A model generated the notes under the pieces. That model was not told where the DNA came from. It searched no databases and saw only the letters and a program-made list of their open reading frames with translations. Positions 12,159 through 37,996 of a stretch of DNA of 37,996 nucleotides are shown in pieces. The stretch's first letter is position 1; each line of letters begins with the position of its first letter. Source of the DNA: Candidatus Hadarchaeota archaeon. Its GTDB lineage: Archaea; Hadarchaeota; Hadarchaeia; Hadarchaeales; JAWBSP01. The DNA lies in the NCBI GenBank assembly GCA_964474885.1, contig CAYYWO010000010.1:1-37996 (forward strand), read 5' to 3'. The position numbers were made by a program, and so were the translations under genes.

Positions 12159-12164
12159 CAATTC

Positions 12165-13088: not shown

Positions 13089-13109
13089 TATCGCGGTGCG
13101 GAGAATCGG

Positions 13110-13859
13110 ATGAGAAGACCTGGCAGACGCGTGAGGATTCGGCCACGCAGGGCGAAGATCATAGGCTTCTTCTCCTGCAAGGGAGGGGTCGGTAAGACGA
13201 CCATGGTCTCTAACCTAGTCACCCTCCTGACGGACAGAGGAAAGAAGCTACTGGCCGTGGATGCGAATCTGGGTGCCCCGAATTTAGGCCTGCACTTCGG
13301 GGAGCTAACGCCCAAAATGACTATCCACGACGTGATCTCGGCTGAGCTCCCGATCCAGCGGGCCATCGTGGAGATTCAAGGGGTCAACCTCATCCTCGGG
13401 TCTATCGCCTTTGAGGAGGATATCAAACTCGTGGATTTGGGGGAGCTGCTTGAGCCGCTCCGGGCAAGCTACGATCTGATTTTCTTAGACACGGCACCGG
13501 GGGTTGGCAGCGAGGTAACCATGGCCCTGAAGGCATGTTCGGGCATGTTCATAGTGACAAACCCCTATGTCCCAACAATCGCCAGCACCCTCAAAACGTT
13601 CAGGGCAGCCGAAAAGTACAATGTCCCGATTCTGGGGGTGATCGTGAACAGGGTGGCAGGGGAACCCTACGAGCTCTCGTTAAAAGAAATCAGGAAGGCC
13701 ATGGGCTGGCCAGTGGTGGGGATCGTGCCTGAAGATAAGGCGGTCACCGAGTCAACTGCAGCGGGCATACCAGTAGTCAGGTACAGACCCACTTCTCCAG
13801 CAGCCAAGGAGATGAGAAAGATGGTGGGGAAGGTACTCGAGAGGATAAGGAGGATATGA
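13110..13859 (+). CDS. minD: MinD/ParA-family P-loop ATPase
   Basis: Deviant Walker A KGGVGKTT, VDANLGAPNL, LDTAPG, GVIVNRV, IVPED, GIPVV. Confidence 0.85.
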   Translation: MRRPGRRVRIRPRRAKIIGFFSCKGGVGKTTMVSNLVTLLTDRGKKLLAVDANLGAPNLGLHFGELTPKMTIHDVISAELPIQRAIVEIQGVNLILGSIAFEEDIKLVDLGELLEPLRASYDLIFLDTAPGVGSEVTMALKACSGMFIVTNPYVPTIASTLKTFRAAEKYNVPILGVIVNRVAGEPYELSLKEIRKAMGWPVVGIVPEDKAVTESTAAGIPVVRYRPTSPAAKEMRKMVGKVLERIRRI

Positions 13860-14470
13860 AGAAGGGGTACAGGGTGCTGAGGGAGATCCTGCACCAGTAC
13901 TTCACGAAGGGGGAGAGGTTCTTCGTTCAGCAGGAGCTGGCCCACGCATGCGGTATAAGTTTGGGCACGCTCAACCCTCTGATAAAAAAATTGGAGCGCA
14001 TGCGCATGATCGAGTGCAGGCCTTTTGGTCTAAGGTTGCTGGATCCGCGCCGCCTCCTAGTTTACTGGGCGGCGAGGAGGGACCTGTTCGAAGATATCGT
14101 ATATTCCACCCACTGCGTTCAGGAGGCCGATGAGGTAGAAAGAGCACTCGTTGAGGCAGGTTTTGTTCTGACCGCCCAGTCTGGGTACAAGCGCGTGTTC
14201 GGAAAAACCCCTCCCGATTACGACAAGGTCTTGGTTTACGGGCAGGCCGAAAAGATTAGGAGGATCTATGGACCGAGGGAACTCGAGCCCAACCTCATCG
14301 TGCTCGAACCGGATGAACATCTGTACAGACTTTCTGAGCATGGGGTGGCACCGCTCGTTCAGCTGTATGTCGACCTGTGGCAGCTGGGCAAATTGGGCGG
14401 AGAGCTGAAGGAGGACTTGGAGAGAAAGCTGGAAGAGGCACCCCTAAAGGCACTAGAGCGGGTTAGGTGA
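13856..14470 (+). CDS. Winged-HTH protein with AbiEi-antitoxin-like C-terminal region
   Basis: QQELAHACGISLGTLNPLIKKLE HTH, LLVYWA and PLVQLYVDLW motifs. ATGA overlap with minD. Confidence 0.7.
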   Translation: MKKGYRVLREILHQYFTKGERFFVQQELAHACGISLGTLNPLIKKLERMRMIECRPFGLRLLDPRRLLVYWAARRDLFEDIVYSTHCVQEADEVERALVEAGFVLTAQSGYKRVFGKTPPDYDKVLVYGQAEKIRRIYGPRELEPNLIVLEPDEHLYRLSEHGVAPLVQLYVDLWQLGKLGGELKEDLERKLEEAPLKALERVR

Positions 14471-15328
14471 TCACTTGGAGGACAGAAGTATTTTCAGGAT
14501 TCGCGACACAGCTCTCTCTATGACATTCAACCTTTGTTGCAGCTTCTTGAGTTCGGTTGAGTTCTTCCTCTCTAAGTTTCCTAGAGTCCTCGAGAATTCC
14601 TCTCTCAGCCCATCGATTACGCTCTTCTCCGCCGACACTTCCCTATGATAGTTTTTGATGTCCTCTGCTAGGGCCCGGAAGTGCTGAATCTCTCCGACCA
14701 GCTTGTCGAAATCCGCCCGACTGACGAGTCCTTTCATGGATACCTCCAGCTCCCCCACGGCTTTCTGCAGGGGTTTTATGGTATCCTCCAGCCGGGATAG
14801 TCTGACTTCCAGATTTGTAACTTCCTTGAACCTACGCTGGAACTCCATGAAGGCTGTCATCACTTTGTCGGCAGCCACTTCCACCTGGTCTCTGATTTGC
14901 TGGATCCTTAGAATGTTGCTCCTCGCCTCATCGGACATCCCAATGACGGTCTCGAGCCCCTTGAACTTCGCCAAGGTTTCCCGGTACTCCTTCATCTCCT
15001 TGCGCAGGGAGTTCACCATGTCCTCAAAGGTCGAGAGCCTTGTCTTTATGCCCTCTATCTCGGCATCCCTCCGCATTAGGTAAGACTTGAACTCGTCCGG
15101 TTTGATGCCTTCTAAGGATGTCAGAGCCTTTTCTGCTTTCACTTTAGCGTCAGCACTCTCCTTTGCTTGGGCGATGATCATGGATCTCAGTTCACCAATC
15201 TTTTCCGTGATTAAAGTGAACCTGGCATCGTATGCTTCCCTTAATCCCGCTAAGGCCGTCACTCTAGCCTCCAACTCCCCAAGTCTCCTTTCTAACCCTC
15301 CTAGCTTTCCCTTTTCTTCTTTCGGCAC
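14471..15328 (-). CDS. Long coiled-coil protein (285 aa), function unknown
   Basis: Heptad-rich and charged throughout, no TM segment. GTG start 2 nt after the giant gene's stop. Confidence 0.85.
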   Translation of the reverse strand: MPKEEKGKLGGLERRLGELEARVTALAGLREAYDARFTLITEKIGELRSMIIAQAKESADAKVKAEKALTSLEGIKPDEFKSYLMRRDAEIEGIKTRLSTFEDMVNSLRKEMKEYRETLAKFKGLETVIGMSDEARSNILRIQQIRDQVEVAADKVMTAFMEFQRRFKEVTNLEVRLSRLEDTIKPLQKAVGELEVSMKGLVSRADFDKLVGEIQHFRALAEDIKNYHREVSAEKSVIDGLREEFSRTLGNLERKNSTELKKLQQRLNVIERAVSRILKILLSSK

Positions 15329-15330
15329 CT

Positions 15331-18300
15331 CTACTTACTCCTCCTGCCTCTTTTTTTCAGTCCCTTAGCAGTCTTGGTCTTCTCTTCCTCCTCCTTCATC
15401 TTGGCAAACTCCGGGTGTAGCTCTTCCTTCAGGGGCCTCTCTACTTCTCCTCCCACCTCTACTGGCACCCCCAGTATCTCCCTGTAGGCTTGGATGATCT
15501 CGGGCGGCCTCTCTATTCTTTCCCTTTCCCTGAGTGCCGCCATCTGCGCCCTCCTGATTTCCTCCTCGGGGACCAGTTCGATCACACGCTTTATGCCCTT
15601 CAGCCCATGCTTGGCGCAAAGCTCGTCCACTCTAGGTTCTAGTGAGTCCAAGTATGCATTGACTAGGTCGAAGGAGGCCTCCTCTAGCTTGCGCACGGCT
15701 AGGCCGAGTTCGATGCGCAGGTCGAAGACGTCCACTCCCTTCTCCTCCAGCTTCTTGAGCTTATACTTGATGTTCTCGATCCTGTCGTCAGCCTCGTAGT
15801 ATTTGTCGAGCTCCTCTGGTGAAAGTCTGAAGGTCGAGTGCAGAATAGGCCTGAAGTTGACGTAGTAGGGCCTACCCCTGTTGTAGTCTGGATTAACGAC
15901 CATGGCGTGCCCGATGGAGGCTCTGGAGACCGAACGCACGTGCTCTTCGCCGTACTTCATGGCTATCCTCTTCAGCTCGTTCTCCTCCCTTGTCCAAAAC
16001 TGGATCTGGGTTCTGCAGTTGCTCTGGATGGTCTCCGAGAAGTCGGCAATGGTCTGGGAGACGAGCATGACGCCGATGCCCCACTTTCTGAACTCCCTAA
16101 CAGCCCTTTCGAGCTGGACGACCCCCGCCCCAGTACCTCCGTACTTGGGCAGGAGCCTATGCACCTCGTCGAAGACTAGGAGCGTCTTCAGGTGCGGGTA
16201 CTCCCTGGGCTGAGAGGCGAAGATGGACTGAATGACATTGGTGACGAACACGTCCAAGTCTCCCGGCTTCAGGCGCTCGATCACGAAAATGGTTATCTTG
16301 CCCCTGGCCTCCTCCCCGATCAGCTCCTTCATATCCAGCTTCTGTCTCGGGTTGGTGATGAGTTTGACCACACCCGGGAAGCTCCTGGCATCACTAGGTT
16401 TCATGCCGAACTTGGAATAATGGGAGAGCATGCGCTTGTCCGTGCACTTGCGCAGGAAGCCCGTCCACTGGGCTGTTGGGTCGAAGACTATCGCATTGCA
16501 GCCCTTGAGGAGGGCTTCCTCGACTATAACCATGGAGGAGATGGTCTTGCCTCCCCCCGTGGCACCAGCCGTTATCACGTGCATCCTCAGGTCATCCAGG
16601 TTGAGGAACGCGGGCTCGCCCGTTTCGGCCAGCTTACCGATCTTGACGGAGTTTGGTCCAGGTTTCGGTAGCTCTTCTCTGAACAGCGTCCCGAGGAACC
16701 TCTTCCTCATCTCCAGCCGCTTCTTGTATAGCCTGTATCCATAAACTCCGGAAACTACGGACGCTATCGCGGCCACGATTAAAGCTCCGAACATCCATGG
16801 AGACAGCCCGAAGACTTTCAGCCTAGCAGTAGGCTCACCCACTTTAACGGGTGTTGAACCTCTCACCACAAGGGACTCACCGTTGATCGGGTACTCGGCT
16901 ACGGCGAGGAAGGTATACTCTCCTTCGAGCAGATCCTTCGGGAGCTGGCAGGTGAAGTCGAGGGTTCTTGCGTCACCGGCAGGCACTCTGATAGCCTTCT
17001 GACCGATGAACACGTTCTCCCCAGTCGGGTAAACCAACCACAGTCCTACCGTGACATCGGAGTCCATAGCTCCCTTGTTGGTCAGCTGGACTTGGACAGT
17101 GGTGGTGGCACCCGGTACGAGCTGATTCGGAGCTATAACCACCACATCGAACATACCCCTAGCCATGGGCAGGACGTAGATCGTAACTGGTACCGTCTTC
17201 ACGGTGGTCCCCCCGACGGTACTGAATCTTATTTCACCCGTGTGCACTCCCAGCCTCTCGTGGGACGGTATGGAGAACCTGAAGGTGAGCTTCCTGCTTT
17301 CCTTGGCTCCTAGCTCGAACTCGTAGCTGTAGGGAGCAGGCAGGAAGTCCTGGATTTTGCCCAAGATGTCCACTCTTACCCTGATGGGCTGAAACATCTG
17401 ACTGGTGACCTCCAATATCGCATCCGCCGACTTCTCCTGGTGGATCTGAAGCACAATTTGAATTGGTTTGATGACGAACGCCTCTTTCGGGGTTATGTTC
17501 TCCTGGATCATCTTATAGGCGGCTATGAGCTTTTCGTAAACAGTCTCTAAGTCCTCCTTCATGGATAGCTGGTAGTTCTCAAGCTTGGACACGCGCTCAC
17601 CAAGCCCGCTCACCTCTTGGGTTATCTGATCTAAAAGACCTGCAAAGTCCGACTGTGCAGTCTGGATCTGCTGAATGGCGTAAATGATGTCCCCGATCGT
17701 TTCTAGAATGTAGTCTACTTCGTCTTGGAGAAGCGCAATAGCTTCGGTTGTATTCTCTTGGAGTTCCGCAAGCTGCTTTTGAAGTTTCATGAAGTTCTCC
17801 TGCAGTTCCATCATCTGCTGCTGGAGTTCGATGAGCGTTCTGATGTTCTCTTGGGTCGCGAGACCGGACACTATGTTTTCCAAGGTGGAGGTTATCTCCT
17901 TCATGTTCTCGACAGCCGACGTGGCCTCCTCAGCGGCCTGCTGGAGGTCCCCCGCAGCCTCCTGCATGGTCTGGACAGCCTCCTGGAACTGGAGGATGGT
18001 GGAGGCGAGCGGATCGTACTCAGCCAGCACGTAAGCTACCTCGAAGTCGAACTCCTGGGTCCACGTGTTGTCCCAGGCCTGGATGGTGTAGTTGGCTATG
18101 TCAACCTTCCCTCCCAGGTCGATGAAGTCACCCTCCTTGCTCCTGTTGTCGTAGGAGTAATTGTCGGTCCTGTAGACCCTAAGCTGGGTCACGTCTTGGA
18201 TCCAGTACATCTGCAGGTAGGGGTATATGTCGAAGGTTGCACTGATGTTCTCGAAGTTCTCATAGAGGATCGGGTTGAGGCGCAGGGCAACGGTAGTTTC

Positions 18301-21300
18301 GGTCATTTTCGTCCCGGGGACGGCGAGGAAGGCGGAGGGCGGCAGATCCACCTGGACTAGGTTCTCGATGACTGAGTACGGTTCTAGCTTAGTTGTGTCG
18401 AAGTTAGTGAACTTGATCCAAACCCAGGCGTTCTCTCTGTTCCTGAATTGCAGAACTAGGTCAAACACTCCAGCGAAGACACTCTTTTCGTAGTAACCCT
18501 CCCCATCCGTAACGATCCGGAAGACCTCCTTTCCAGCTTCGTAGAAGATGAAAGAGGCATTTTCGATCGGATAACCGTCGACGGTGGCAAGCCTTCCTTT
18601 GATGGTTATGGGGGTACCCGCTATCATGGTCATCGAGTTCTCGCCCCTGATGCCCTCTGGGTTGACTATCCGAACCTCCACGTTGTACAGCCCGCGCTTC
18701 GGGAAAGTGTAGATTATCTGGTAATTGCCATCTAGCTGGGTCAGGTTTTCAGCTTTCTTCTCCCCCTCGACGAAGAACTCGACCTTCGTGCCAGATACAG
18801 GCATGTTGTCGGGTAGGAGGATGGCTTTACCCGAGAAGGTGAAGGGCTTGTTCTCAGGGGCGACATTCCCCTCCGGGATCAGGGAGATGTGGATGGTCTT
18901 CACGGAGAGCGAGGCGGAGTTCTCTTGGCAGAGGCCGTGGCTCTCGGTCATCTGCACTGTCACCACGTAGTCGCCGATCTCACTCGGGGCGGTCAGGGGC
19001 TTGGAGTAGAACCCGTTCTCGTCGGTCTGGATCACACACGACTCGTTCTCGAGTGTCAGCTGCACCTCCTCCCCACCCACGGGCTCTCTGTCGGGCAGGA
19101 GTTTGGCCCAGCCGTAGACAGTGAAGTTGTCTCCCGGGTTGACGATGTTGTCGTCCAGATATATGGAGAGCTCTACAGCCCTCACCTTGAGCGGCACGGA
19201 GCCGACGCCCGATCCGCTTATACCGTTGGCCGAGGTACCCATCACCTCCACCGGGTACGAGTAGTCTCCCAGCTCTAGGGGGGCCTGAGAAGCCGTCGGG
19301 TACCTCCACCAAGCATCCCTGACGTAGATTAACGGGTATGTGTCACCCTGGAAGGTCATGCGGAGCGGATCCTCGGTCACGGTCTTGGTCACCGGTATGA
19401 GCTCCTCCCCGTTATTCTCGAAGATCTGCACGCTTGGGTAGAAGTTCTCGCCTGGGTTGACGATCCCGTCGAACTGGTTGTGGAAGTCCAGCGGCATGAA
19501 CTGCAGGAGGACGAGCTCCCTCGCCTCGACGTATCCAACGTTCTCCCCTGTTATGCCTTCTGGATCCACCAAGCTCGCACTTATGCTGAACTTGCGCGGG
19601 GAGGTCGAGTCAAAGGTGTACAGGTACGAGTAACATCCGTTCTCGTCCGTTGTGACGGTCTCCAGCGGTGCGCCCTCCTCTTTCAGCTGGACCTCCTCGT
19701 TGGGCACGGGTACGTTGTCTGGCAGGAGGATCGCCCTGCCGTAGATCGTGAAGTCCTGGGTCAGCATGACGATGTTGTCGTCGAACAGCAGGGACAACCA
19801 CACGGTCTTGACGTAAAGGTCCACCTGGGTAGCCGCCGAGTAAATGCCCTTGTACTTGGAGATGCTGACCACCACTCTGTAGTCACCGATCTTGGAGGGA
19901 CTGGTGAAGGGTACCGAGTAGTAGCCGTCCTCATCCGTCCTGCCGCCGGCGACGGAGACCGTGTTCCCCTCGTTGTCCAGCACGAGCAGGCTGACGTCAA
20001 AGTTTTCCACAGGCTCCACATTCTCCGGGCTGCACAGGAGGATCCTCCCGTAAGCCCTATTGCGCTGGCCTGGGTTCACTATGTTGTCGTCCAGGTTCAC
20101 CTCCAAGTCCACGTACTTCACCGTCAGCTTTTGCTGGTTCTCGCCCTTTATGTATTCCTCAGGCTCCAGGATGGTGGCCCTGTAGGTGTAGGTGCCTGCG
20201 CTCGAGGGCGTGTAGAAGTAGATGCTGTAGCAGCCGTCCCAGTCGGTCTCCGCAACGCCCAGTAGGTTCTCCTCGCAGTACAGCTTGACGTTTTCCAGAG
20301 CCACCGGTTCGTTGTCCGGCACCAGCATGGCCTTCCCTGAGGCCATGAGCCTCTCCGACTTGTTGGCCTCGGTCCTCGGGTTCCCTGAGGGATCTGTTAT
20401 GTTGAGCGAGATCAGGATGGCCTTGATCATGAAATCTACGCTGTCGCTTCCTCTGATCCCATCTGCGTTCACGGCGGTTACTTGCAGGGTGTGGGAGCCC
20501 ACCTCGTCCAGGGTGTAGCTCAGGGTGTAGGACCAGGAGTACTGTCCATCGGTAGAGGAGGAGCTGCCCACGAGCTCCCCGTCTAGGTAGAAGTACAGGG
20601 TTGCGTTCTCAGGCACCCCCTCGGGCTGCAGAGTGACCCTGCCGCTCGCGGTTATCTTCTGGTCGATGTTCACTACCAAATCGTCTAGGCTAACCGTGAC
20701 ATCCAGCCTCCTTATGATAACGGTTGTGGAGTTCTCCTCCGTGACACCCTCCGGGTCCGTTACTTCCACCCTCACTACGTGCTCACCCAGGACAGAGGAA
20801 GCGTAGGTGGTCGAGTACCTCCCCTCACTGTCCGTGCTGGGGGTCCTCACGAGGCTCCCGTCGAAGTAAACCCTGACTTGGACACCCGAGATGCTGAGGT
20901 TGTCCGGCTGCCAGCTCACCCTGCCGTAAATGGTGAAGCTCTCCCTTGGGTTCACGATGTTGTCCGAGAGGGAGAGGGAGATGGTCAGATCCAGCACGCG
21001 GAACTTGAAGACGGGGCCCCAGTCTCCCGCATTTCCTGCCCGGTCCACCGCCCTCACCCTCCAGTAGTAGGTGCCGATGGGCAGGGAGTTCTCGGCGGGC
21101 AGGGTGAAGCTGTTCTCCCGCACGTTGTCGAAGGTGATGGGACCGGAGAAGTCAGGCGACTCGTCGATCTGGAGCACGTAGTGGTCCACCCCGCTCACCT
21201 CGGTTGTTGCGTCGGTGTTGTCCACCACGTTCTCCCACTCGAAGTACGGGGTGTTATCGGAGGTTATCTTCCCGTTCTCCGGCAGGTACAGGGAGGGGGT

Positions 21301-24300
21301 GAGCGGCTTGACCCTGTCAATCACGAGCTCGTAGACCTCCGACCACTCCCCGGGCTCGGTTGGCGCAGCTCTGTCGTAGGCCCTGACCCTCCAGTAGTAC
21401 CTCCCGTCCCATGGGTAGAACACGGTCACCTGGGCCTCCTTGAGGTTGTCGGGTGTGGAGGGGGAGAAGTACTCTGCCCCGAGCAGGGAGGTGAAGCCCG
21501 GATCGGTAGCTACCTGGATCTCGTAGTGGTCGATGCCGGATGCATCTTTGACGTTCTCCCATACGTGAGTGACGACCACGTAGTCTCCTTGCACGTTGTT
21601 CTCGGCCGCATCGTTTTCGGGCTGGTACAGCGCAGGGCCGTAGGGCCTCGTCAGGTCCACTACGAAGTTCCAGACGGTTGCCGACTCCCAGTCCACGGTG
21701 TTCCCAGCAACGTCCCAGGCCCTCACCCTGAAGTAGTAGTTGTCCTCCTCGAAACCGGCAGACGGGTAGCCTGAATCACCGAGCCCCCAGTAGTTGTCGG
21801 TGCTCGTGCCGCTGTAATCGATGGAGGAGAAGTCCGGGTCGTTGTCCACCTGGATCTCATAGTAGTCCACCCCCGATACCTCCCCCGTCGCCGAGCCCGA
21901 GCGGTCGGGCACGGAATTCCAGGACAGAGTGAGGGTGGCTGTCCCGTAAATGTGTCCGTGCTGCGGGGAGTTCTCGGGCACCTCCGGTGGCACGGTGTCG
22001 ATCAGTAGCGTCCAGACTTGGGAGAATGGACCGGCCTTCGGCGTCCCTCCTAGGACGCCGTCCCATGCCCTCACGCGCCAGTGGTAGTTCTCATCACCCA
22101 GCCCCATGAGCGGTACCCTGTAGTTCTCGCTGAGGTTCTCCAGAATCTCCGGGGAGCTGAAGTCCGCATCATTGTCCACCCATAGCTCGTACTTCACCCC
22201 CGTCACGTCATAAACGCTCGTCCACTCGAACCTGGGTGTGTTGTCGTTGGTTATGGTCTCATCGCTTGGGGAGACGAGCGAGGGTGCGGGTGGCGGATTG
22301 TTGTCCACGATGAAGCTCCAGACGTTCTCGAAGTCGCTCGCATTCCCTGCGACGTCCCAGGCCCTAACCTTCCAGTAGTACACGTTGTCCGGGAGAGTTG
22401 TCGTGTAGGAGGAAGTGGTGACGTCCACGTGGACGACTAGGTTGGTGAAACCCTCATCGGTGGAGACAAAGAGCTCGTAGTGGTCCAGGCCGGAGACGTC
22501 CCCGGAGGGAGACCTGGATCGGTCCACAACGTCTCCCCAAGCGAACGTGACCTCGGAGGAATTGAGCACGGATCCGTTCTCCGGCATGATCATGGGTGGG
22601 ACGTCCGGCGGGAGGGTGTCCAGGAGGACATTCCACACCTCGGACCAGTCGCTCCAGTTCCCTGCATTGTCTCTGACCTTGACATGCCAGTACCTGCACT
22701 CATCCTGCGGTTCGCCGTCTGCGTAGAAGAAGAACGTCCGCTCGGACACATCCACCGTAGCGGAGATGTGGTAGTCCGATGAGGGGTCAAAGGCGGGCGA
22801 GTTGTCTATCTCGATGATGTAGGCTCCGGAGCTCGGGATGCCCCACTCATCTGTTGCGTCGGCCCAGTCGAACCTGATCTTACCCGTCGAGTCATTTGTC
22901 ACGGCTTGGTTCTCGGGGGAGAGGAGAGCCGGTGGGTCAGGTGGCGTCAGGTCCACCACGACCGTCCAAGCATCCTCCACGTCGCTTGCATTGCCCGCCC
23001 AATCCCATGCCCTAACGGTCCACCTCCACTCTCCCTCCGGGACATCTGCATCGTAGGTAGTTCCGGCCACGTTGTCGGAGATGACATATCCGGTAGTTAC
23101 ATTCTCGATCCTTATCTCGTAGCACTTCACACCCGCGTTCTCACCTGTGGGCGAGTTGGAGGAGTCAGTGGAGGCGTTCCAGGAGAAGGTCAGGCTGGAG
23201 GAGTTCGTCACCACCCTGTTGTCGGGGTCATCCACCCCCGTGTCCGGTACCACGGTAGCCTTCAGCGGGACGGTTGGAGGAACGGTGTCGATGAGCACCG
23301 TGAAGACATCCGACCAGGCGCTCGCATTCCCTGCAACGTCCCAAGCCCTTACGCGCCAGTGGTAGTTCTCATCGGACAGTTCGACTACCCGGCTGGTTGA
23401 GTCCAAGTTCTCTTGGAGCACGGGGGAGCTGAAGTCAGCATCGTTGTCTACCCAGAGCTCGTAGCACTTGACGCCAGAGTTCTCCAGAGTGGGCGACCAA
23501 GACCTGTCCACGACCTCGGACCAGCTGAACTCAGGCGTGTTATCGTTCGTTTTCGTTCCATCGGCAGGCGACTTCAGGGTGGGGACATCCGGTGGTCTTG
23601 TATCGACCAGCAGGGTCCTCGTCTCGGAAGTGCTGTAGTTGCCCGCATTGTCCCAGACCCTAACCCTCCAGCTCCAGTTCTCATCGGGGAGTTCAACCGT
23701 TACTTGGTTGTCTGTGTAGTTCTCCAGCCAGAAGGGAGAGCTGAAATCGTTGTCATTGTCGATCCACAGCTCGTACGCCACCACCCCTGCCTTTTCGCCT
23801 GTGGGCGAGTTCGACAGGTCTTGCACGAAGCTCCAGCTGAAGGTCTGCAAGTTGTCGTTGGTTATGAGACCATCTTCGGGTGTTCCCAAGCTCGTCACTT
23901 CCGGAGCGACAGTATCCAGCAGGAAGTTGAAGGTGACGGAGTTTTCGCTAACGTTCCCGGCGGCATCCTTCGCCTTTACCCTCCAGTAGTACCTCTCATC
24001 GCTCAGCGTCACCACCTTGTAGTTGACGGTGGTCAGGTAGGAGGAGGCCGAGCTGAAGTCAGGGTCGTTGTCGATGTAGAGCGTGTATGAGTCGATGCCT
24101 GAGAGGTCCTCGGGCTCCGTCCAGCGGAAGGTAACCTCAGCCGTGTTGATCATGTCCGAGTTTTCGGGCAGGAGGGGTGTGGGCGGAGCCGGAGGCGTGG
24201 TGTCCACGATGAACCACCAGGTGCTGGACCAGGCCCCGGCGTTCCCTGCCCAGTCCCAGGCCCTGACCCTGTAGTACCATTTGGCATCCGGGAACCCTGT

Positions 24301-27300
24301 TTCGGGATAGTTCTCATCCACGCCGGACTCAAAGGCAGTATCCGGGCTGAACTGGATGACGAAGGGCGAGCTGAAGTCTGAGTCGTTGTCTATCCAGAGC
24401 TCGTATACCTTCACCCCGGAGGCCTCACCCGTGGGTGAGTAGGAGCTGTCGGTGGTCGAGTCCCAATTCAAGGTAGGATTGACTTGATTGGTGATCAGGC
24501 CATGGGTGGCGGAGCTGGCGGGTGTTCCAGGTGGCTTCGTGTCGATCATCAGCACGAAGAGCTCGGACCACTCGCCCCAGTGGCCCAGGACATCCCTCGC
24601 TCTGACCCTCCAGTAGTAGTTCTCATCGGAAAGCTGGGTACCCAGCTCGTGCACGTTCTCGGATGAGAAGTTCTCGTACTCGGGGGAGCTGAAGTCCGCA
24701 TCATTATCCACCCACACCTCATAGAGATCCACTCCGGCTAGGTCATAGGGCGTCTGCCACTTGAGCAAGGGTGTGTTGTCATTCGTGGAACTCAGGTTCT
24801 CCGGCTCCAGCAGGACCGGTGGTTCTGGCGGTGTGGTGTCCACGATGAACCACCAGGAGGCCTCAAAGTCCCCAGCGTTCCCTGCCCAGTCCCAGGCCCT
24901 GACCCTCCAGTAGTACTTCTCATCCGAGAAGATCGTGCTCCAGCTGTTGTCCGGGTGCGTTATGTTCTCTAGGTTCTCGGGGGAGCTGAAGTCGGGGTCG
25001 TTGTCTACCCAAATCTCGTAGCATTTTACTCCTGCAGCTTCTCCAGTGGGTGAGTCCGAAGTATCAGAGGCATGGTACCACTCAAATCTTATCTGTGTAT
25101 TGTCTGTCACGTGTTCATTGGGAGGAGCGTACTTGGAGGGTACTGAGGGTGCGACGGTGTCCCTCAGGAAGGAGAAGACACCTGACCAGTCGCTTTCGTT
25201 TCCTGCTTTGTCGATCGCTCTCACCCTCCAGAAGTAGTTCTCATCCGATCCTATCTTCAGCAGGATTTCCGAGGAGCTCGGGAACTCCTCTATCTCGGGC
25301 GTGCTGAAGTCTGGGTCGTTATCGACCTGGATGTGGTAGTGGTCGACACCCGAGTAATCGTCGGTGGAGTCCGTCCAGTCAAACTTGATGTACGTCAAAT
25401 TGGTCTTCGCTCCATTCTCCGGCGAAACTGGTTGTGGTGTAGAAGGACCTTCGATGTCGATGATGAAGGTCCAAGGCTCCTCGTTCTCGCTGACATTCCC
25501 TGCCTCATCCCAAGCCCTGACGATCCACTTGTAGATGCCGGGATCGAGTGTGATGGTCTTGATCGTGTCCGTGATGGTATTATCGTAGTGTGAGTAGGGT
25601 GGCACGAACCCGTCATTGTCGACTATGAGCTCATAATGTGCGACTCCGGCGTTTTCACCCGTCGGTGAGTATGAGTTGTCGTAAGAGGTTCCCCAGTCTA
25701 GTGTTACACTCAAGTTTGTTGTTATGTATCCATCGGACGGACCTACCTTTGGTGGTACGCTGGGCGACATGGTGTCCACCAGGAAGCTCCAGATCTGAGA
25801 CCAGTCGCTTACGTTCCCCGCATTGTCCCAGACCCTGACCTTGTAGGAGTAGTTTTCGTCCCCGAGCTCAAAGTCGAAAGTATAGGAATTCTCGGTGAAA
25901 TTCTCCTGAAGCACAGGTGAGCCGAAGTCGGGATCGTTATCCACCCAAAGCTCGTAGTACTTCACGCCGGAGGCCTCACCGGTTGGCGAGTTCGAGTAGT
26001 CCGGAACAGATGACCAGGTCAAGGTTGGTGTATTGTCGTTGGTCTTCATTCCATCCTGCGGGGAGCTGGGCGGGATGGCTGGTGGAACTGTATCGATCAG
26101 TAGCCTCCTGACCTCTGAGTCCGCCCAGTTATAAACCTCGTCCCAAGTTCTGACTTTCCAGTAGTAATATTCATCCGGTAGCTGCAGGGTCTTGGAGGTG
26201 GAGGTGAGGTTCTCCTGCCAGTAGGGTGAGCTGAAGTCAGCATCATTGTCAATCCAAAGTTCATAGCAGAGTAGTCCGGCATTCTCTCCAGTCAGCGATT
26301 CTGAGACGTCCTGGACCTCCTCCCAGCTGAAGGTAATGGTGTTCTCGCAGGTCTCCAGCTGGTCTGCGGGCGAGATCAGGGTAGTTGCGGGGACCGTGGT
26401 GTCAACCAGCAGGGTCCAGACCTCGGAGGATGCAGGGTGCCCGTAGACCCAGATCCTCACCTTCCAGTGCCAGTTCTCGTCGGGCAATTCGACAGTGGCT
26501 TGGTTTTCGGTGTAGTTCTCAAGCCAGTAGGGAGAGCTGAAGTCCGCGTCGTTGTCGATCCAGAGCTCATAGTTGTCGGTCAGTGGCCTGCTCGTCCACT
26601 CGAAGACCACAACATTGTCGTTCGTCCTCGTTCCATCTGCCGGTGAGATCAATTCGGGCGGAGCGGGTGTTTGGGCTCCGCATGTCCAAGCTTCAACCCG
26701 CATCCAAGCCACAGGTGTGTTAACAGATGCTGCCCACTCCTCGTTCTTCAGCCACTCAGCCACGGTAAGCACATGAGCTCCCCAACTTTCCAGCAAGAGC
26801 CATCTTGCTCCAAACACGAGGGTCCCGTCGAAAGTTTCAAGGGATCTCCATTGAGCTTTAGTTTCCACGGCCTCACTCCATGACTCGAGCTGCCTCCACT
26901 TCCCAATGATGTACAGCCGGGCAACCGACCATTCCCCGATGTTCCCTGCCGTATCCCTCGCCCTGACCCTCCAGTAGTAGTGGTCGGCTTTGGGCAGGGT
27001 TACCGTGTGGTAGTTCTCCAGGATGTTGTCGTTATCGTACTCCGGGGAGCTGAAGTCCTCATCGTTGTCTATCTGGAGCTGGTAGATGACCCCAGAGTTG
27101 TCGACAACCGAGCACCAGCGGAAAGTAACGGTCAGGTTGTCCGAGCATGAGGCATTTTCGGGCGACAGGAGCTGGACCTGTGCTGGAGGCACGGTGTCCA
27201 CCCTGAACCAGAAGGTTTCAGAATTGTCCCCTATGTTACCGGCGTTGTCCTTGGCGCAGACCCTCCAGTAGTACACGTTGTCGGGCAGGGCTGGTGTCAC

Positions 27301-30300
27301 CTCCCACCAGTTCTCAGCCCTCCAGCCGTTCTCCCTCACCACATTGGTGAAGTCGGGATCTGTTGCTACCCAGACGTAGAACAGGACTGGCTGGGACACA
27401 TCCCAGACGTTCTCCCAGCTCAGGAGTGGCGTCGTATCGTTCGTGTTCTCTCTATTCTCGGGCTGGTAGAGCTGGGGCGGGGCTGGCGGCTGAGTCTCCA
27501 CCCTGAACCACCAGGTGGCAGTCTCGAACACGTTCCCAGCGTTGTCTTTAGCGAGGACCCTCCACTCGTAGTCGTTGTCGGGTAGGGATGGTGTTACGAC
27601 CCAGTTGTCGTCCGTTATCCATCCCGAGTCCCTGTAGTTCTCCGTCACGCCCTTCCTGTTTATCAACACCCGGTAGAGGACGGGCAAGCTGTTGTCGACC
27701 GCTGGGTTCCAGTCCAGATTCGGCTGAGCTCCAACTCCAGCAATCCTCCCGTTTTCCGGCCAGATCAGGAAGACATTTTCGGGTGGTAGAGTGTCCACCC
27801 TGAATTTCCTCACCTCCGAGTTCTCCCCTATGTTACCGGCGTTGTCCTTGGCGCAGACCCTCCAGTAGTACACGTTGTCGGGCAGGGCTGGTGTCACCTC
27901 CCAAGCATTCTCGGAGATCCAGCCGGAGTCCCTCACTATGTTCTCAAACAGGTTGTCAGTCGCCACCCACACCCTGTAAACCACGGGTGGTGATACCTCA
28001 GGGGTCCCCCCTACCTGCGTGCTCACCTCCTCCCAGCGCAGGAGGGTGGTGTTGTCGTTCACGTTCTCCCCATCGATGGGTGAGATTAGCACGGGTGGGA
28101 GCGGGGGCTTGGTGTCCACCCTGAACCAGATGTACCCCGTGTTCTCCCCGACATTTCCGGCATCGTCGCGCGGCACGACCAGCCAGTAGTACTCACCATC
28201 GCTGAGCTCGATCGGGCACTGCCAGTTTTCAGATTCAATCCAGTCAGTGGTTTGTGTCAGCAGGGTGTAGTCCTCGTCGTACACGTACACCTTATAGGTA
28301 AGCGGGAGGGAGTTCTCAGGCGGGGCCTCCCACTGGAACAGGGGCGTATTGTCGTTTATCTTAGCCGTAGGCCAGATGGGGGTGGGTGCACTGGGAGGCA
28401 CCGTGTCCACCCTGAACCTCCAAACCTCTGAATTCTCACCAATGTGCCCCAGCTCGTCCTTCCCGCACACCTTCCAGTAGTACAGGTTGTCCGGCAGGGC
28501 GGGAGTGGCCTCCCACGAGGTTGAGGACAGCCAGTCGGACTCCCTCACGACGTTCTCGAAGAGGTTGTCCGTTGAGATGAAGACCTTGTAAACGACATCC
28601 GTCAGGTCCTCGGACGGGTTCCAGGATAGGACTGGCGTGTTGTCGTTCAGGTTGTCCATATCCGGTGGGGAGGAGAGTGTTGGTGGGGTCGGCGGCGTGG
28701 TATCCACGATGAAGTACCTGACCTCGGACCACGGACCTACGTTCCCCGCATTGTCCTTCGCCCTGACCCTCCAGTACCAGACCCCATCTGCCAGGGCGGG
28801 GGTTACCTCCCACTGGTTGTCTAGGATCCACCCGGAATTCTCGTTCTCGTAGGGGAAGTTCTCGTTGTCGCTTATGGCGACATAATAGGCTACGGGCAGC
28901 GCCTCCTCTGGGTAACCATCAGTTTGGGTGGTCACATTCTCCCACTGCAAGAGCGGCGTGTTGTCTGCCGTCTTCAGCCCGTTCTCGGTGAGCAGGACAG
29001 GGGCGGCTGGGGGTGTTACGTCTATTCTGAACCATCGGATCTCAGACCACGGACCTACGTTCCCGGCGTTGTCCTTTGCCCTTACCCTCCAGTACAACAC
29101 TCTGCCTCTGGTGAAGGTTATGCTCACCCCGGTGTTGTCGATCCAGCCTGAGGAGTAGTTCTCGTACGGGAACTCTTTATTGTCGCTTATCGAGAGGTAG
29201 TAAAGGACCGGCAGGGAGTTCTCGGTCACGGAGCTCCACTCGAAGTGCACAGTGTTCTCGTAGGTTGCCCAGCCGTTCTCGGGGGAAACTAGGGATGGGG
29301 CCGCAGGCGGAAGGGTGTCGACCCTGAACTTCCAGAGGTCACTGTAGACACTCGCGTTACCCGCATTGTCTAGGGCCTTGATCTTCCAGTAGTAAATTCC
29401 GTCCGCCAGCTCCACGGTGCACTCCCACCAGTTCTCCCCCACGACGATGGTATCCGCCACCAGGTTTAGGTCCTTGTCGTAGACCTTCACGTAGTAGCTC
29501 ACGGGTATAGAGTTCTCCGGTACGTTCTCCCAAGTGAACAGGGGCGTGTTGTCCCTGACGTTCTCCCCGTTGTACGGGTGATATCTGTCGGGCACTTTGG
29601 GCGGGGTGTTGTCGTACGCGAAGTACCTGTTCTCAGACCATGCCCCCCAGATGCCCTCCACGTAGGCTCTGACCCTCCACCAGTACTTGGAGTCGATAGC
29701 GGGCGGCTCGAAAACGTACTGGTTCTCCAGCACCCCCGAGTTGTCCACGATGGGGGAGCTGAAGTCGTTGTCGTTGTCGATTTGCACCCAGTAGTTCTCG
29801 GCAAGCCTGACGGACTCCCAGGTCAGGGTGATCGGTGGAGTATTGAAGCCTTCTCCATTCTTTGGTGAGATGAGCAGGGGCGGCGGCACGGGGGCGCTCA
29901 CGTTGTCCGTCCACCCCTCTACTAGCCTCCACGCCACGAAGGCCTTACCTCCGCAGCTCCACGTTTCTACCCGTAGCCATCCGCTCAGGGGGCCTTTCAG
30001 GCCGGCGCCCCAGCTCTCGACCGCCACCCACCTGCCTATGTAGAACTTCCAGTTCTCCGACCAGTCCCCGGCATGCCCCACCGCATCCACGGCCCTCACC
30101 CTCCAGAAGAAGAGCCCGTAGCCCGTAGCCTGCCAGTGGTAGACGTTTTCGGCAGTGGTGTCCTCGTGCAGAATTTCGGTGAAGTCTTGGTTCGCCGAGA
30201 TCTGTATCACGTAGTGGTCCACACCCGAGCTCCAGAGATCGTTCGGGTTGTCGTAGTCATCGTAGGCCCTCACCCACTCGAACCTGACGCTCAGGTTGTC

Positions 30301-33300
30301 CCTCACATGGTTGTCGGGTGGGGAGTAGAGGCCCGGAGTGGAGGGAGGTTTGACGTCCAGCCTGAAGCTCCAGACCTCCGACCAGTCACCCACGTTCCCT
30401 GCATTGTCCCTCGTCCTGACCCTCCAGTAGTACCTGTCCTCGGTGGTGAGCGGCGGGCTGATGCTCCACTTGTCCTCATGGATCCAGCCTGAGTCCCTCA
30501 GGATGGCAGAGAAGTCTGAGTAGGCGGAGACCTGCACCTGGTACATGACGGGCAGAGAGTTCTCCTCCACGGGCTCCCAGTCCAGGGAGGCGTTTTCGTT
30601 CACCCAGCTGTCATCCGCGGGGGAGGTGAGGGCGGGCGCGGCAGGCGGCAGCGTGTCGATGCGGAAGCTCAATTCGGCATTTTCCCCGATGTTCCCAGCA
30701 TTGTCCACGGCCCTCACCCTCAGGTAGTAGACACCGTCCGGCAGTTCCACCGGAACCGTGTAGGTGTTCTCCGTCAGCCCGCTCACGCTCACCTCCGGGG
30801 AGGAGAAGTCCGGGTCGTTGTCTATCCAGAGGTCGTAGGTCAGCGGGAATGAGTTCTCCTCAGGCGGGATCCACTCAATGGTGGGGGTATTGTCATTCGT
30901 GTTCTCCCCGGCTACAGGTTTCGTGATGGTGGGTGGGGAGGGTGCGAGGGTGTCTATCCTGACGGTCCAGACCTCGGACCAGGGGGAGTAGGCGTTCGTC
31001 CTCGCCTGTCTCACTCTCCAGTAGTAAAGCCCGTCGGTCAGCCCTGCAACGTACGTGTACTCGCTACCGATGAGGTCCGGCCTGTCTATTACGAGATCCG
31101 TGAACTGGTTGTCCGTGGCCACTTGCAGGTGGAAGTTATCGGCTGGTAGCAGGTTTTCCCAGTCGAAGGTCGGGGTCGGATTGTTGATGTTCTCCCCGTT
31201 TCTGGGGCTGATCAGCACGGGTGCGGGCACGGGCGCGGAAACGTTCTCGTTGGCCCACACCTCGATTGACCACCAGCTGGCCAGGGTCCGGACAGCACAG
31301 CTCCAGCCCTCCACCTGCCTCCATTCCGAGTAACCAACCGAGCCCGCCGCCCAAACCTCTACCTGCCTCCACCTGGCAAGTGCGGTGGTGCCCGACGCCC
31401 ATTTCTCGACCTGCATCCATCCAAGCACCAGGGTCCGGACGGTGCATCCCCAGCCCTCCACATGCCTCCACCCAGCCAGTGCAGTCGTGCCTGACGTCCA
31501 TCCCTCGACCTGCATCCATCCAAGCACTAGAGTCTGGACGGCACAGCTCCAGCCCTCCACGTATCTCCACTCAGAGTAACCAACCGAGGTAACCGTCCAG
31601 CCCTCTACCTGCGTCCACCTGGCTAGTGCGGTGATGCTTGACGTCCATTCCTCGACCAGTAGCCATCCTGCCGAGGTTCGGACCAGGCCTTTTAAGTTCT
31701 CCACTAGGAACCAGCCACCAACAGGGCCGTTGATCCCAGCAGTCCAGCCCTCGAGCAGGATCCAGTGCCCGACGTACAGTGCGAAGTTATCCGACCAGTC
31801 CCCAGCCCATCCCACGGCGTCTATCGCCCTCACCCTCCAGTAGTAAAGGCCGAACTCCGAGAAGGTGTAGGTGTGGTAGTTCTCGCTTGCCGGGATGTTG
31901 TCGTTCTCGTATACTATGTTAGAGAAGCCCGGATCGGTGGAGACCTGCAGGTGGTACCTGTCCACCCCTGAGAGCTCATCGCTCGCATCGTACCACCTGA
32001 AGGTAACGGTCAGGTTGTCCAGCGTGACGTTGTTTTCTGGCTTGTAAAGCGTCACCTTGCTGGGCGGGGTCCGGTCCACCTTGAACTGGTACCCCGTATC
32101 CCCGCCCGCCCACGGGCCTACGTTTCCGGCGTTGTCCACCGCGCAAACCCTCCAGTAGTACACGTCCTCCGTGGTTAGCGAGATTTGGAGGTTATCATCG
32201 TAGGTCCATTCGTCGATCGTGGGGCTCCCGAAGGAGGCTGCCTGGTTCCTGACCTGCACGTGGTACCTGACGGGCAGGGAGTTCTCCTGCACCGGCTCCC
32301 AGTCCAGGTTCACCTCCCCGTTGGTCCAAACCCCGCCCGTCGGGTAGACGACGCTGGGGGCTGCGGGAGGCAGGGTGTCCACCCTGAAGCTCCCCGCCGA
32401 CCAGCTCCCCGCATTCCCAGCATTGTCCCACCCCCTCACCCTCCAGTAATAAACGTTATCAGGTAACTCGACCGTCACCTGGCAGTTGTCGTTCTCCAGC
32501 CTGTTCTCGTGGAAGATTATGTTGGAGAAATCCGAGAGGTTCGAGACCTCCACCTCGTAGAGGACGGGCAGGGAGTTCTCTGGGCTCCCATCCTTCTCCT
32601 GGGTTACAGGCTCCCAGTCCAGGAAGGGGGTGTTGTCGTTCAGATTCTCCCCCTCGGCCGGGGAGACGAGCGTGGGCGCAGCTGGCCCTGTCGTGTCCAC
32701 CCTCACCCTCCAGACCTCCGACCAGGGTCCCTCAGCATCCCCCCGCTTCATCTTCACCCTCCAGTAGTACAGGGCATCTGCCAGGCTCCCTAGAGGTGTG
32801 TAGGACTTGGCCTCGATCCAGCCTGGCTCTATCTCCGGGGAGCTGAAGTCGGGGTCGTTGTCTACCTGCAACCAGTAGGCATCCGCCGGGAGGAGGTTCT
32901 CCCACTCGAAGGTCGGGCGGTTGTTGTTCGTGTTCAGGTTATCGGGTGGGGAGACGAGCACGGGTGCGGGCACGGGCGCGGAAATGTTCTCGTTGGCCCA
33001 CACCTCGATTGACCACCAGCCAGCGGTGGTCCTGACTCTACCGGGGCACTGTTCGATGGACCTCCAGCTCGCGAAAGCGGCAACGATTCCGGACCAAAGC
33101 TGAAGGAGGAGCCAAGCGGCAGCCGAGGAGGTGGAGCCCGACCAGTCTTCAAGCAGAAGCCAAGCGGCAGGGGCACTCACACCCCCGGATAGGCCCTCTA
33201 CACCCTCCCACCTAGCTGGAGCGAAGACGGATGCGGTTGTGCTCTCGACGGGTACCCATCCCGAGATGATCGTTCCAACCGATCCCGTCCAGGCTTGGAG

Positions 33301-36300
33301 TAGTAGCCAGCCCATCAGGATGGTCCCACTCCTGCAGTCCCAGCCTTCGACCCGCAGCCATCCGGTGATGATGGTGCCCAGGCCCCCGCTCCACGTGCTG
33401 AGACCGAGCCATCCGAGCAAGACCGTCCCGACTATGGCATCCCACCCATCTATTAGCTGCCAGGAGGCAATGGTGTTAAGACTAGCCAGCCACTGCTCCA
33501 GGAAGATCCAGTGTCCAACATATAACACAAAGTTATCCGACCAGTCCCCAGCCCATCCCACGGCGTCTATCGCCCTCACCCTCCAGTAGTAAAGGCCGAA
33601 CTCCGAGAAGGTGTAGGTGTGGTAGTTCTCGCTTGCCGGGATGTTGTCGTTCTCGTATACTATGTTAGAGAAGCCCGGATCGGTGGAGACCTGCAGGTGG
33701 TACCTGTCCACCCCTGAGAGCTCATCGCTCGCATCGTACCACCTGAAGGTAACGGTCAGGTTGTCCAGCGTGACGTTGTTTTCTGGCTTGTAAAGCGTCA
33801 CCTTGCTGGGCGGGGTCCGGTCCACCTTGAACTGGTACCCCGTATCCCCGCCCGCCCACGGGCCTACGTTTCCGGCGTTGTCCACCGCGCAAACCCTCCA
33901 GTAGTACACGTCCTCCGTGGTTAGCGAGATTTGGAGGTTATCATCGTAGGTCCATTCGTCGATCGTGGGGCTCCCGAAGGAGGCTGCCTGGTTCCTGACC
34001 TGCACGTGGTACCTGACGGGCAGGGAGTTCTCCTGCACCGGCTCCCAGTCCAGGTTCACCTCCCCGTTGGTCCAAACCCCGCCCGTCGGGTAGACGACGC
34101 TGGGGGCTGCGGGAGGCAGGGTGTCCACCCTGAAGCTCCCCGCCGACCAGCTCCCCGCATTCCCAGCATTGTCCCACCCCCTCACCCTCCAGTAATAAAC
34201 GTTATCAGGTAACTCGACCGTCACCTGGCAGTTGTCGTTCTCCAGCCTGTTCTCGTGGAAGATTATGTTGGAGAAATCCGAGAGGTTCGAGACCTCCACC
34301 TCGTAGAGGACGGGCAGGGAGTTCTCTGGGCTCCCATCCTTCTCCTGGGTTACAGGCTCCCAGTCCAGGAAGGGGGTGTTGTCGTTCAGATTCTCCCCCT
34401 CGGCCGGGGAGACGAGCGTGGGCGCCGCCGGCGGGGTCACGTCAATTCTGAACTGCCTAACTTCGGACCAAGCGGATTCTGCTTCCGTCCTTTTCATCTT
34501 AACCCTCCAGTAGTAAACCCCCTCATCCAAGGAGCCCAAGGGTGTGTAGCTCTTTGAGGTTATCCAGCCCGTGTCTATCACGAGTGAATTGAAATCCGGA
34601 CTCTCGTTGTCCACCTGTAAGTAGTAGTAGTCCGCCGGCTGGAGGTTGTCCCAGCTGAAGGTCGGCGTCTGGTCGTTCGTGTTCTCGTGATTCAAGGGCG
34701 TGAGCAAAATGGGGGCGGGGACGGGTGCCGAGACATTTTCATTCTCGAAGTTGTCGAGCAGGAGCCAGCTGGCAGAGGTTTGGCAGGAGCATGACCATGT
34801 CTCCAGGAGCCCCCAGCCCAGGACCGAAAAGCTCCCGCAGCTCCAAGACTCTAGCTGGAACCAGAGCCTGAGGTAGAAGCAGCGGTTCTCCGACCAGCTC
34901 TGGTTTCCGACCGCATCGATGGCCAGCACCCTCCAATAGTACAGCCCGATTTCCGAGGCGCTGAAGTCGTAGCTTTCTTGGGTCGGGGGTAGGAGCTCGT
35001 CCACCAGCGTCCCGTTGAGGAAGTTATCATCATTGTCGATCTGCAGCCGGTAGTTTTCAAGCCCCGATCCGCCGTCGTAGTCATGCCATTGCAGGGTAAC
35101 GCTCAGGCCCGTTATCTCCGCCTGGTTGTCCGGGCTCAGCAGGGTTGGCGCGGGGACCTCGTTATCCACCACGAAGGACTCCCTGACGCTGAACTCAGAC
35201 TCGTTCGGTGCAGGGTTGTTCACGTTATCCCTGGCCTTGACCCTCCAGTAGTAGGTCCTGCCGTTCTCGAAGGCCTGGTCGGCGACGAAGTAGTTCTCGG
35301 TTATCCATCCCGAGCTGTAGACATTGGTCAGGAAGTCCGGATCGGTCGAGTACTCCACGTAGTAGTAAACCGGGGTGGAGAGCTCTTCATCGCCATCGTT
35401 CTCCAGAGTGACCGAGGACCAGCGGAGGGTTGGGGTGGCCTGGGTGAACTGCCCGCCTGTGGGCGAGACAGGCTCCGGGATCTGGGGTGGTGTCGTGTCT
35501 ATCCTGAATGATCTGTATGCGGAGTAGTCCCCGACGTTCCCGGCATTGTCCTGGGCCCTCACCTTCCAGTAGTAAGTGTTGTCGGGCAGCTCCGGAGTTG
35601 TTACGTTGTCGTTCTCTATCCACCCGGAATCGAAGACGACATTTGTGAATCCGGAGTCCGTGGCCACCAGGACCTTGTAGAGGAGGGGCAAGGAGTTCTC
35701 GGGGGTGCCGTCGGTCTCCGTGGTTGGAGGATCCCAGTCGAGCAGGGGCGTGTTGTCGCTGAGCACCTCCCCGTCCTCGGGAGAGACGAGGGTCGGGACG
35801 GAGGGGGGCGTTAGGTCCACGTGGAAGACCCAGGGCTCCGTCCAGGCCCCCGGTGTGCCGGCGTACCACCTCCTGACTCTCCAGTAGTAGAAGCCCTCGG
35901 GCAGGGAGTTTTCTGGGGGAATCGTTATGGTGTTTTCAGTAGTGTTGTTCTCGTACTCGGGGGAGCTGAAGTCGGCATCGTTGTCCACCTGTATGTCGTA
36001 GTTGTCTGCCGGGATGCTCGTCCACCTGAAAGTTGGCGTATTGTCCTGCGTATTTGCACCGTTCTCTGGCTCAAGTAGGGTCGGTCCGGGTGGGCACCAG
36101 GTTATCTTCACCCAGTCCACGAGCGGTCCGTCTGCTCCCGAGAGCAGCTCGTTGTCCTCGGTTGCGAACTTGATCCTGTACTGGAAGTACCTGTTCTCGT
36201 TCCCCAGGGGTATGCGGGAGTTGTTTTCTATCCAAGTGTTTGTCGCCGAGTTGTCGTCGAACCACGTGTTGGACGTGTTGTCCGGTCCCTTCCAGGGGGA

Positions 36301-37996: not shown

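Follow-up and report, generated by a model that had tools for sequence, protein, structure and literature searches.

Acid-preceded asparagines in exported proteins of Hadarchaeales and a putative change of N-glycosylation acceptor motif

The stretch of DNA analysed here (37,996 nucleotides, hereafter the window) is contig C10 of a genome bin of the uncultured hot-spring Candidatus Hadarchaeota archaeon (assembly GCA_964474885.1; bin G000, 1.18 Mb in 60 contigs, 92% complete) and encodes a giant surface protein in which asparagine (Asn) follows glutamate or aspartate far beyond chance. This [E/D]-N excess is real, and it recurs across the exported proteins of the genome and of its order, the Hadarchaeales, whose single AglB/STT3 homologue carries an altered version of the WWDYG motif of oligosaccharyltransferases. 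We suggest that the excess may be the trace left in the genome by a motif that marks acceptor sites for the modification of extracytoplasmic Asn, used throughout the Hadarchaeales, and that this modification would most probably be N-glycosylation by AglB. On balance we lean towards the view that the whole order has exchanged its acceptor motif for N-glycosylation for [E/D]-N.

Acid-preceded asparagines in the giant surface protein

The gene for the giant surface protein lies at 15331..37995 on the minus strand and comprises 7,554 codons in an open reading frame (ORF) that is open at its 5′ end; because the gene runs off the end of the contig, the N terminus and signal peptide of the protein are missing. 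The product consists, in this order, of about 7,060 residues of immunoglobulin-like (Ig-like) repeats (Pfam Ig_Rha78A_N and Big_13) and Trp-rich blocks, a helical stretch, one transmembrane (TM) helix and a tail. A hydrophobicity scan placed the single TM helix at residues 7062–7087 (16735..16812, minus strand). The 467-residue cytoplasmic tail that follows it (15334..16734, minus strand) contains a HerA/DUF87-type P-loop ATPase domain (PF01935, 1.2e-08; PF05872, 1.3e-08). Because the ATPase domain needs ATP, the long N-terminal part, residues 1–7061 (16813..37995, minus strand), was taken to lie outside the cell. The fusion of an adhesin-like fibre to a cytoplasmic HerA/DUF87 (FtsK/TraD-like) P-loop ATPase is an unusual combination.

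The extracellular part contains 478 Asn residues, and 313 of them are preceded by Glu or Asp. Glu-Asn (EN) occurs 170 times against 34.9 expected (observed/expected ratio, O/E, 4.88) and Asp-Asn (DN) 143 times against 36.1 (O/E 3.96); the canonical sequon N-X-S/T is found 74 times, with 70.7 expected. The acid-preceded count was never approached in 2,000 shuffles of the extracellular part, which yielded 71.4 ± 7.7 sites with a maximum of 101, and shuffling inside 50-residue blocks gave 74.8 ± 7.6. The excess was spread along the whole chain, with an acid-preceded share of 53–76% in each 500-residue bin where 12–18% was expected. The cytoplasmic tail of the same protein, used as an internal control, has 12 Asn, of which two are EN and none DN.

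Neither pair is enriched in the opposite order (NE, O/E 0.78–0.85; ND likewise), so the bias is directional. The hexamer GAGAAC occurs 122, 0 and 0 times in the three reading frames and once antisense, its synonyms are likewise found in frame only, and codon use in the gene is as expected. The signal therefore lies at the protein level, and an explanation by a DNA motif or by codon pairs was rejected. Pro at +1 follows 1 of 315 acid-preceded Asn in the whole giant protein, compared with 16 of 175 other Asn. The Asn that lack a preceding acid make up 2.3% of its residues, about the cytoplasmic level, and we looked for avoidance of N-G or N-S in the giant protein and saw none.

A preliminary description of the window, made from its sequence alone, had counted Asn in several segments, and most of these counts were reproduced. 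It had reported eight of ten Asn in the first 76 translated residues (37768..37995, minus strand) as EN; eight are acid-preceded, but as six EN and two DN. All seven Asn are EN, two of them also in N-x-S/T, in the non-repetitive helical stretch before the membrane anchor (17485..18015, minus strand), which appears coiled-coil-like from its heptad-like sequence, and our recount of the cytoplasmic part returned the same two EN among 12. The four EN among seven Asn in the signal-peptide peptidase SppA (Peptidase_S49; 9034..9777, minus strand) were likewise recovered; this protein has an N-terminal hydrophobic segment and no N-x-S/T, and its gene lies outside the stretch, from 16800 onwards, to which the description had assigned the bias.

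The other ORFs of the window (171..15328) were counted one by one as a local control, and the 12 without a hydrophobic segment hold 72 Asn with two EN and no DN. Directly downstream of the giant gene, a 285-residue coiled-coil protein (14471-15328, minus strand; weak Pfam matches to BLOC1_2 and DUF7310) has no hydrophobic segment, and none of its seven Asn is EN. Within the giant ORF, two near-identical blocks of about 330 residues (approximately 29000–33000, minus strand), which start '...APTLVSPAEGENLNDNTPFLDWEPVTQEKDG...', are separated by Trp-rich repeat blocks; they could reflect a recent internal duplication or a risk of assembly collapse.

The bias in the secretome and among relatives

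ORFs of G000 were taken as the longest non-overlapping frames of at least 90 residues (n = 1113), and each was assigned a localisation class from a hydrophobicity scan. Even with the giant protein excluded, EN (O/E 2.52, z 22.9) and DN (O/E 1.99, z 11.8) headed the ranking of the 400 dipeptides by over-representation in ORFs that have TM or signal segments. Over the whole bin, O/E for EN and DN was 2.83 and 2.13 in secreted or anchored ORFs and 1.05 and 0.74 in cytoplasmic ORFs, so that the proteome-wide count proposed in the preliminary description came out in favour of its claim. Taken one by one, 23 of the 685 ORFs with at least five Asn exceeded the expected [E/D]N count at p<1e-3. Every one of these has TM or signal segments, and none of the 480 cytoplasmic ORFs reached this threshold. 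Among the proteins with an excess are members of the Ig-like, CBM96, PA14, LamG, pilin-N, MMPL and metallophosphoesterase families, several others have no Pfam match, and the bias is present in helices as well as in beta-rich domains of unrelated folds. When 27 homologues of large surface proteins were removed, EN O/E was still 2.46 in 60 secreted or anchored ORFs and 2.49 in 92 multi-TM ORFs, against 1.05 in cytoplasmic ORFs, which upholds the earlier argument that repeat copying does not explain a bias spanning unrelated folds.

We next scanned all 20 residues at positions −3 to +3 around Asn, comparing non-cytoplasmic with cytoplasmic ORFs. Glu and Asp at −1 gave the strongest position-specific signals in non-cytoplasmic ORFs and were absent as signals in cytoplasmic ORFs; at −2 of the acid-preceded sites Pro and Tyr were enriched and acid was not. 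The canonical sequon excludes Pro at +1, and in the non-cytoplasmic ORFs of G000 other than the giant protein Pro followed 23 of 775 acid-preceded Asn versus 161 of 1922 other Asn (odds ratio 0.33). In two families whose topology is known, the sites lie in the domains that face outside: 7 of 11 in the C-terminal domain of AglB and 8 of 12 in the two large loops of an MMPL transporter.

The bin is split sharply by guanine-plus-cytosine (GC) and tetranucleotide content into 27 core contigs (1.02 Mb, GC at least 0.47, window included; range 0.47–0.65, mostly 0.52–0.64) and 33 low-GC contigs (161 kb, GC 0.33–0.47; C13, C16-C18, C24, C26-C29, C32, C34-C49 and others), the latter probably from another organism or foreign DNA. 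On the high-GC contigs, O/E in non-cytoplasmic ORFs was 2.84 for EN, 2.40 for DN and 1.07 for N-X-S/T, rising to 3.44 and 2.79 for EN and DN in secreted or anchored ORFs, against 1.06 and 0.74 in cytoplasmic ORFs. The residue scan of these contigs placed Glu at −1 first (z 25.0) and Asp at −1 next (z 14.4), with no signal for Ser or Thr at +2 in the non-cytoplasmic ORFs. Non-cytoplasmic ORFs of the low-GC contigs gave EN 1.25, DN 0.72 and sequon 2.28, with Thr at +2 as the top signal (z 13.5). Two large exported proteins encoded there illustrate the pattern: 59 of 174 Asn lie in N-x-S/T and 25 are acid-preceded in one (C18:1992-8027), and 40 of 109 and nine in the other (C29:70-4698). The recovery of the textbook sequon from these contigs indicates that the pipeline reads the sequon where it is present, and the small residual N-x-S/T signal in the whole of G000 arises because the low-GC, probably foreign contigs contribute to it.

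The same bias was found in regions of 98–380 kb from five other Hadarchaeales genomes, representing four families. EN O/E in non-cytoplasmic versus cytoplasmic ORFs was 4.12 versus 1.23 in G002, 2.33 versus 1.27 in G003, 2.06 versus 1.12 in G011, 1.95 versus 1.19 in G018 (380 kb) and 1.89 versus 1.01 in G009. Glu at −1 topped the residue scan in all six Hadarchaeales (z 25.0 in G000, 12.4 in G002, 8.2 in G018, 7.4 in G003, 6.0 in G011 and 4.3 in G009) and never came first in the cytoplasmic ORF sets of the scanned genomes. The sequon O/E in non-cytoplasmic ORFs was 0.92–1.19 in G002, G003, G011 and G018 and 0.94 in G009. The Hadarchaeales secretome thus combines a 2- to 4-fold [E/D]-N excess with no excess of N-X-S/T.

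Outside the order the bias was absent from the archaea sampled, and the comparison with relatives that the preliminary description had suggested was favourable to its claim. The only genome of the phylum from outside the order, G031 (388 kb), had EN O/E of 1.19 versus 0.90 in cytoplasmic ORFs and no signal for Glu at −1; its sequon O/E of 0.91 is a caveat on the sequon test, as this outgroup with a WWDYG enzyme likewise shows no N-X-S/T excess. A Hydrothermarchaeota control (G066) gave EN 0.98 and sequon 2.26, with Thr (z 13.7) and Ser (z 10.1) at +2 on top of the scan. Values were 1.32 for EN and 1.59 for the sequon in an Asgard sample, 1.34 versus 1.11 for EN in a pool of bacterial loci, and 1.47 for EN, with a wide interval, in a small Geoglobus sample.

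Conservation of the sites was examined in reciprocal-best orthologues pooled over G002, G003, G011 and G018, relatives that are not independent of one another and that yield small counts. In non-cytoplasmic orthologues, acid-preceded Asn was kept at 41 of 69 positions versus 144 of 329 for other Asn (p 0.024), and where the Asn was kept its acid was kept too in 37 of 41 cases, the overall figure for acids being 490 of 734 (p 0.0009). Neither effect was seen in cytoplasmic orthologues (acid kept in 50 of 64 versus 2945 of 4058, p 0.40). Against the outgroup G031, acid-preceded sites were kept in 3 of 22 cases versus 38 of 103.

The AglB homologue and its pocket motif

To our knowledge, the WWDYG pocket motif is common to all characterised oligosaccharyltransferases, and N-X-S/T is otherwise universal. 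PMC8342417 describes the motif WWDYG and the motif DK/MI as building the Ser/Thr-binding pocket for the +2 residue of the sequon. The single AglB homologue of G000 (C1:98397-100637, 746 residues) was located by tblastn with a congener protein. Its AlphaFold2 (AF2) model (predicted local distance difference test score, pLDDT, 89.5; predicted template modelling score, pTM, 0.87) retrieved only N-oligosaccharyltransferases (PglB/STT3/AglB) at Foldseek ranks 1–19 (E 5.5e-17 to 1.4e-11), and other glycosyltransferase type C (GT-C) enzymes (DPY19, ArnT, ALG, Emb) scored 3.9e-07 or worse. The protein is thus predicted to have the GT-C oligosaccharyltransferase fold, with a multi-helix membrane part and a C-terminal globular domain.

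When a profile was built from 31 Hadarchaeal sequences, it matched human STT3A (7.8e-24) and placed ieWSyGH opposite sWWDYGY. In alignment with STT3A/B, [EQ]WS[YF]GH occupied the WWDYG position in 30 of 30 Hadarchaeales loci; the version in G018 is PWSYGH, and xWS[YF]GH is present in 88 of 92 database homologues. Among 150 representatives, 42 members of the clade have xW[S/A]xGx, and WWD or YWD stands in all 93 remoter hits whose match includes the motif. By these alignments the Hadarchaeal enzyme has lost the WWDYG Ser/Thr-pocket motif, its first Trp and its Asp both being gone; inspection of the WWDxG motif, which the preliminary description had advised, thus revealed a change to [E/Q]WS[Y/F]GH. 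AglB retains WWDYG in G031 and in all control archaea, so that the motif change and the EN bias coincide on the same branch, that of the order versus G031. A link between bias strength and the residue that opens the motif (E, Q or P) was considered and discarded, as six genomes gave no clear pattern.

Acidic residues, candidates for the catalytic motifs of the family (two of DXD type and TIXE/SVSE), are conserved in the 31 Hadarchaeal sequences: D39, D153 and E293 are invariant and E155 is present in at least 90%. D153 and E155 belong to an FDrE stretch that aligns with YDNE of STT3A; the alignment does not extend to the first acidic motif and is ambiguous at the motif of external loop 5 (EL5). 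A D-x-x-R-x-x-x-M stretch downstream of the WS motif, recognised by eye only, is a candidate for the DK/MI region. The Pfam STT3 cut-off is passed by 27 of the 31 genomes (G000 and 30 relatives); automatic annotation would list G000 as having no oligosaccharyltransferase, as its AglB escapes this model. About half of the Hadarchaeales AglB homologues reach 1070–1190 residues and have Ig-like domains (PF25788, PF19077) fused to the C terminus of the enzyme; these domains are absent in the G000 copy. The neighbourhood of the G000 gene holds only housekeeping genes (GatA/B, HisRS, MoaA/MoeA and others) and no glycosylation cluster.

A sister clade of AglB-like proteins contains six clusters with other replacements of WWD: HWELGY, DWEIGY, HWEMGY, PWPVGY, DWYLGY and PFGIGH (proteins P0125, P0126, P0131, P0134, P0135 and P0139; loci L257 and L258). 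A metagenome scan for this clade returned nine loci, two of which (about 18 kb each) come from it, and two of its paralogues may share one 250-kb metagenome contig. A 1374-residue exported protein adjoining the L258 copy has 113 Asn, with 25 EN and 14 DN. The variety of motifs in the sister clade could be a sign that acceptor codes diversified on more than one occasion.

Candidate explanations and comparison with known systems

The changed pocket motif and the altered Asn context allow us to propose how the two might be connected. In the switch that we propose, AglB would select Asn by the acidic residue at −1, and the newly acquired Ser of the enzyme may offer its hydroxyl to the carboxylate of the substrate, a mirror image of the canonical contact from enzyme Asp to substrate Thr hydroxyl; if so, the extracellular part of the giant protein would bear as many as about 300 glycans. 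Whether the switch goes this far, with N-X-S/T replaced outright by [E/D]-N, an AglB with [E/Q]-W-S selecting Asn through the −1 carboxylate, and the whole secretome re-coded, including some 300 sites on the giant protein, we judge to be evenly balanced. The preliminary description had suggested an altered oligosaccharyltransferase specificity or another extracellular modification, and the computational checks were favourable to that suggestion.

An artefact of composition, repeat copying, a DNA motif or gene-calling errors could be suspected, as the giant protein is highly repetitive with near-identical internal duplications and the gene calls are crude. We consider this highly improbable: global and block shuffles yield about 71–75 sites where 313 are observed, the bias survives the removal of all homologues of large surface proteins, the hexamers occur in frame only with codon use as expected, the cytoplasmic ORFs of the same pipeline show nothing, and that pipeline recovers the textbook sequon in controls. 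The excess might instead involve no modification and represent a physicochemical adaptation of exported proteins, such as solubility, metal binding or the stability of Asn in a hot extracellular setting. DN in the giant protein does often stand in recurring, possibly metal-binding loops (DNAG 16, DNTP 15, DND[PA] 13 times). We nevertheless think adaptation an unlikely source of a bias that is strictly directional, runs through helices and beta-rich domains of unrelated folds, and is absent from the other sampled archaea, subsurface and hydrothermal lineages included, and from the outgroup of the same phylum. Moreover, Asn density is raised by the acid-preceded residues alone, the others staying near the cytoplasmic level in the giant protein. 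The rate of deamidation is set mainly by the residue after Asn, and the giant protein shows no avoidance of N-G or N-S.

The Asn or the preceding acid might also be modified or processed outside the cytoplasm by an enzyme other than AglB, for instance by a different glycosyltransferase, by hydroxylation or cross-linking, or for protection against a protease specific for Asn; the change in AglB would then be unrelated or loosely linked. The dipeptide alone is silent on the enzyme that recognises it, genomes with the same variant motif in AglB differ in how strong the bias is, and few glycan-assembly genes were found, all of which would suit such an enzyme. We regard it as improbable all the same, given that the bias and the change in AglB fall on the same branch, that EN appears in just those places where the canonical sequon leaves no signature, and that Pro is avoided at +1, as in substrates of oligosaccharyltransferases.

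Several observations weigh against the proposed switch of acceptor motif. The modification at [E/D]-N is itself putative, and because one and the same branch carries both the motif change and the bias, the two constitute one unreplicated evolutionary event among kin that are not independent. Gene calls and localisation classes are crude heuristics, and some cytoplasmic enzymes (for example, ThiC) land in the non-cytoplasmic class. When the loops of multi-TM proteins were assigned by the positive-inside rule, EN O/E inside and outside was 2.11 and 2.47, 1.35 and 2.51, 1.0 and 4.16, or 2.72 and 2.32, depending on the TM parameters, and in single-TM proteins, for which start codons and signal anchors are uncertain, the shares were 0.272 inside versus 0.346 outside (p 0.18). 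Genomes with the variant motif are not alike in bias strength: when restricted to its first 180 kb, G018 gave EN of 1.58 versus 1.24 in cytoplasmic ORFs. Among the controls, a small Aenigmarchaeota sample (19 ORFs) reached 1.82 with a wide interval. Avoidance of Pro at +1 was not significant in the other Hadarchaeales pooled (28 of 563 versus 138 of 2139, p 0.24). The G000 AglB was matched by Pfam STT3 (PF02516) neither in the genome search nor in a direct hmmscan at E<=1. Finally, glycan-assembly genes in this 92% complete genome come to two family 2 glycosyltransferases (GT2; C8:37125-37589 and C2:65134-65484), and a Glycos_transf_4 gene of the AglH/Alg7 type was not found in it; a glycan, if made, may be small and started on dolichyl phosphate.

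If the switch is borne out, an entire order of archaea would rely on an acid at −1, the first case of a sequon re-coded in nature, and would show co-evolution of an enzyme with its substrate proteome. Glycosite prediction in uncultured archaea would then change, and an oligosaccharyltransferase of orthogonal specificity would become available for glyco-engineering. As the unbiased scan of positions around Asn recovers the textbook sequon in controls, it is usable on any genome and could reveal acceptor codes without culture. A literature search turned up no publication that deals with an oligosaccharyltransferase of Hadarchaea, a changed WWD motif or a sequon with an acid at −1, in coverage that leaves out most subscription journals and so leaves this absence unproven.

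The Hadarchaeal system resembles AglB/STT3 with its N-X-S/T acceptor in having a single GT-C enzyme with the predicted oligosaccharyltransferase fold, a C-terminal globular domain, a match to STT3A (7.8e-24) and D153/E155 in alignment with YDNE of STT3A; its presumed targets are exported proteins, which avoid Pro at +1. It differs in that WWDYG is changed to [E/Q/P]WS[Y/F]GH across the order, the secretome shows an acid at −1 with no N-X-S/T excess, and the G000 copy is not recognised by Pfam STT3. An acid upstream of Asn is also read by PglB, in which a specific Arg serves this purpose. For Campylobacter PglB, PMC4894442 gives the extended sequon D/E-X1-N-X2-S/T. An acid upstream of Asn thus belongs to the acceptor site in both cases; in PglB it stands at −2, Ser or Thr at +2 is required and WWDYG is kept, whereas in Hadarchaeales it stands at −1, with no signal for an acid at −2 or for Ser/Thr at +2. 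Trypanosoma brucei STT3A prefers sequons in acidic peptide contexts, according to PMC3311286 and PMC2722254, and there, too, acidic flanking residues shape the acceptor preference; that preference, however, is one of context on top of N-X-S/T, whereas the Hadarchaeales pattern would be a position-specific replacement of the sequon.

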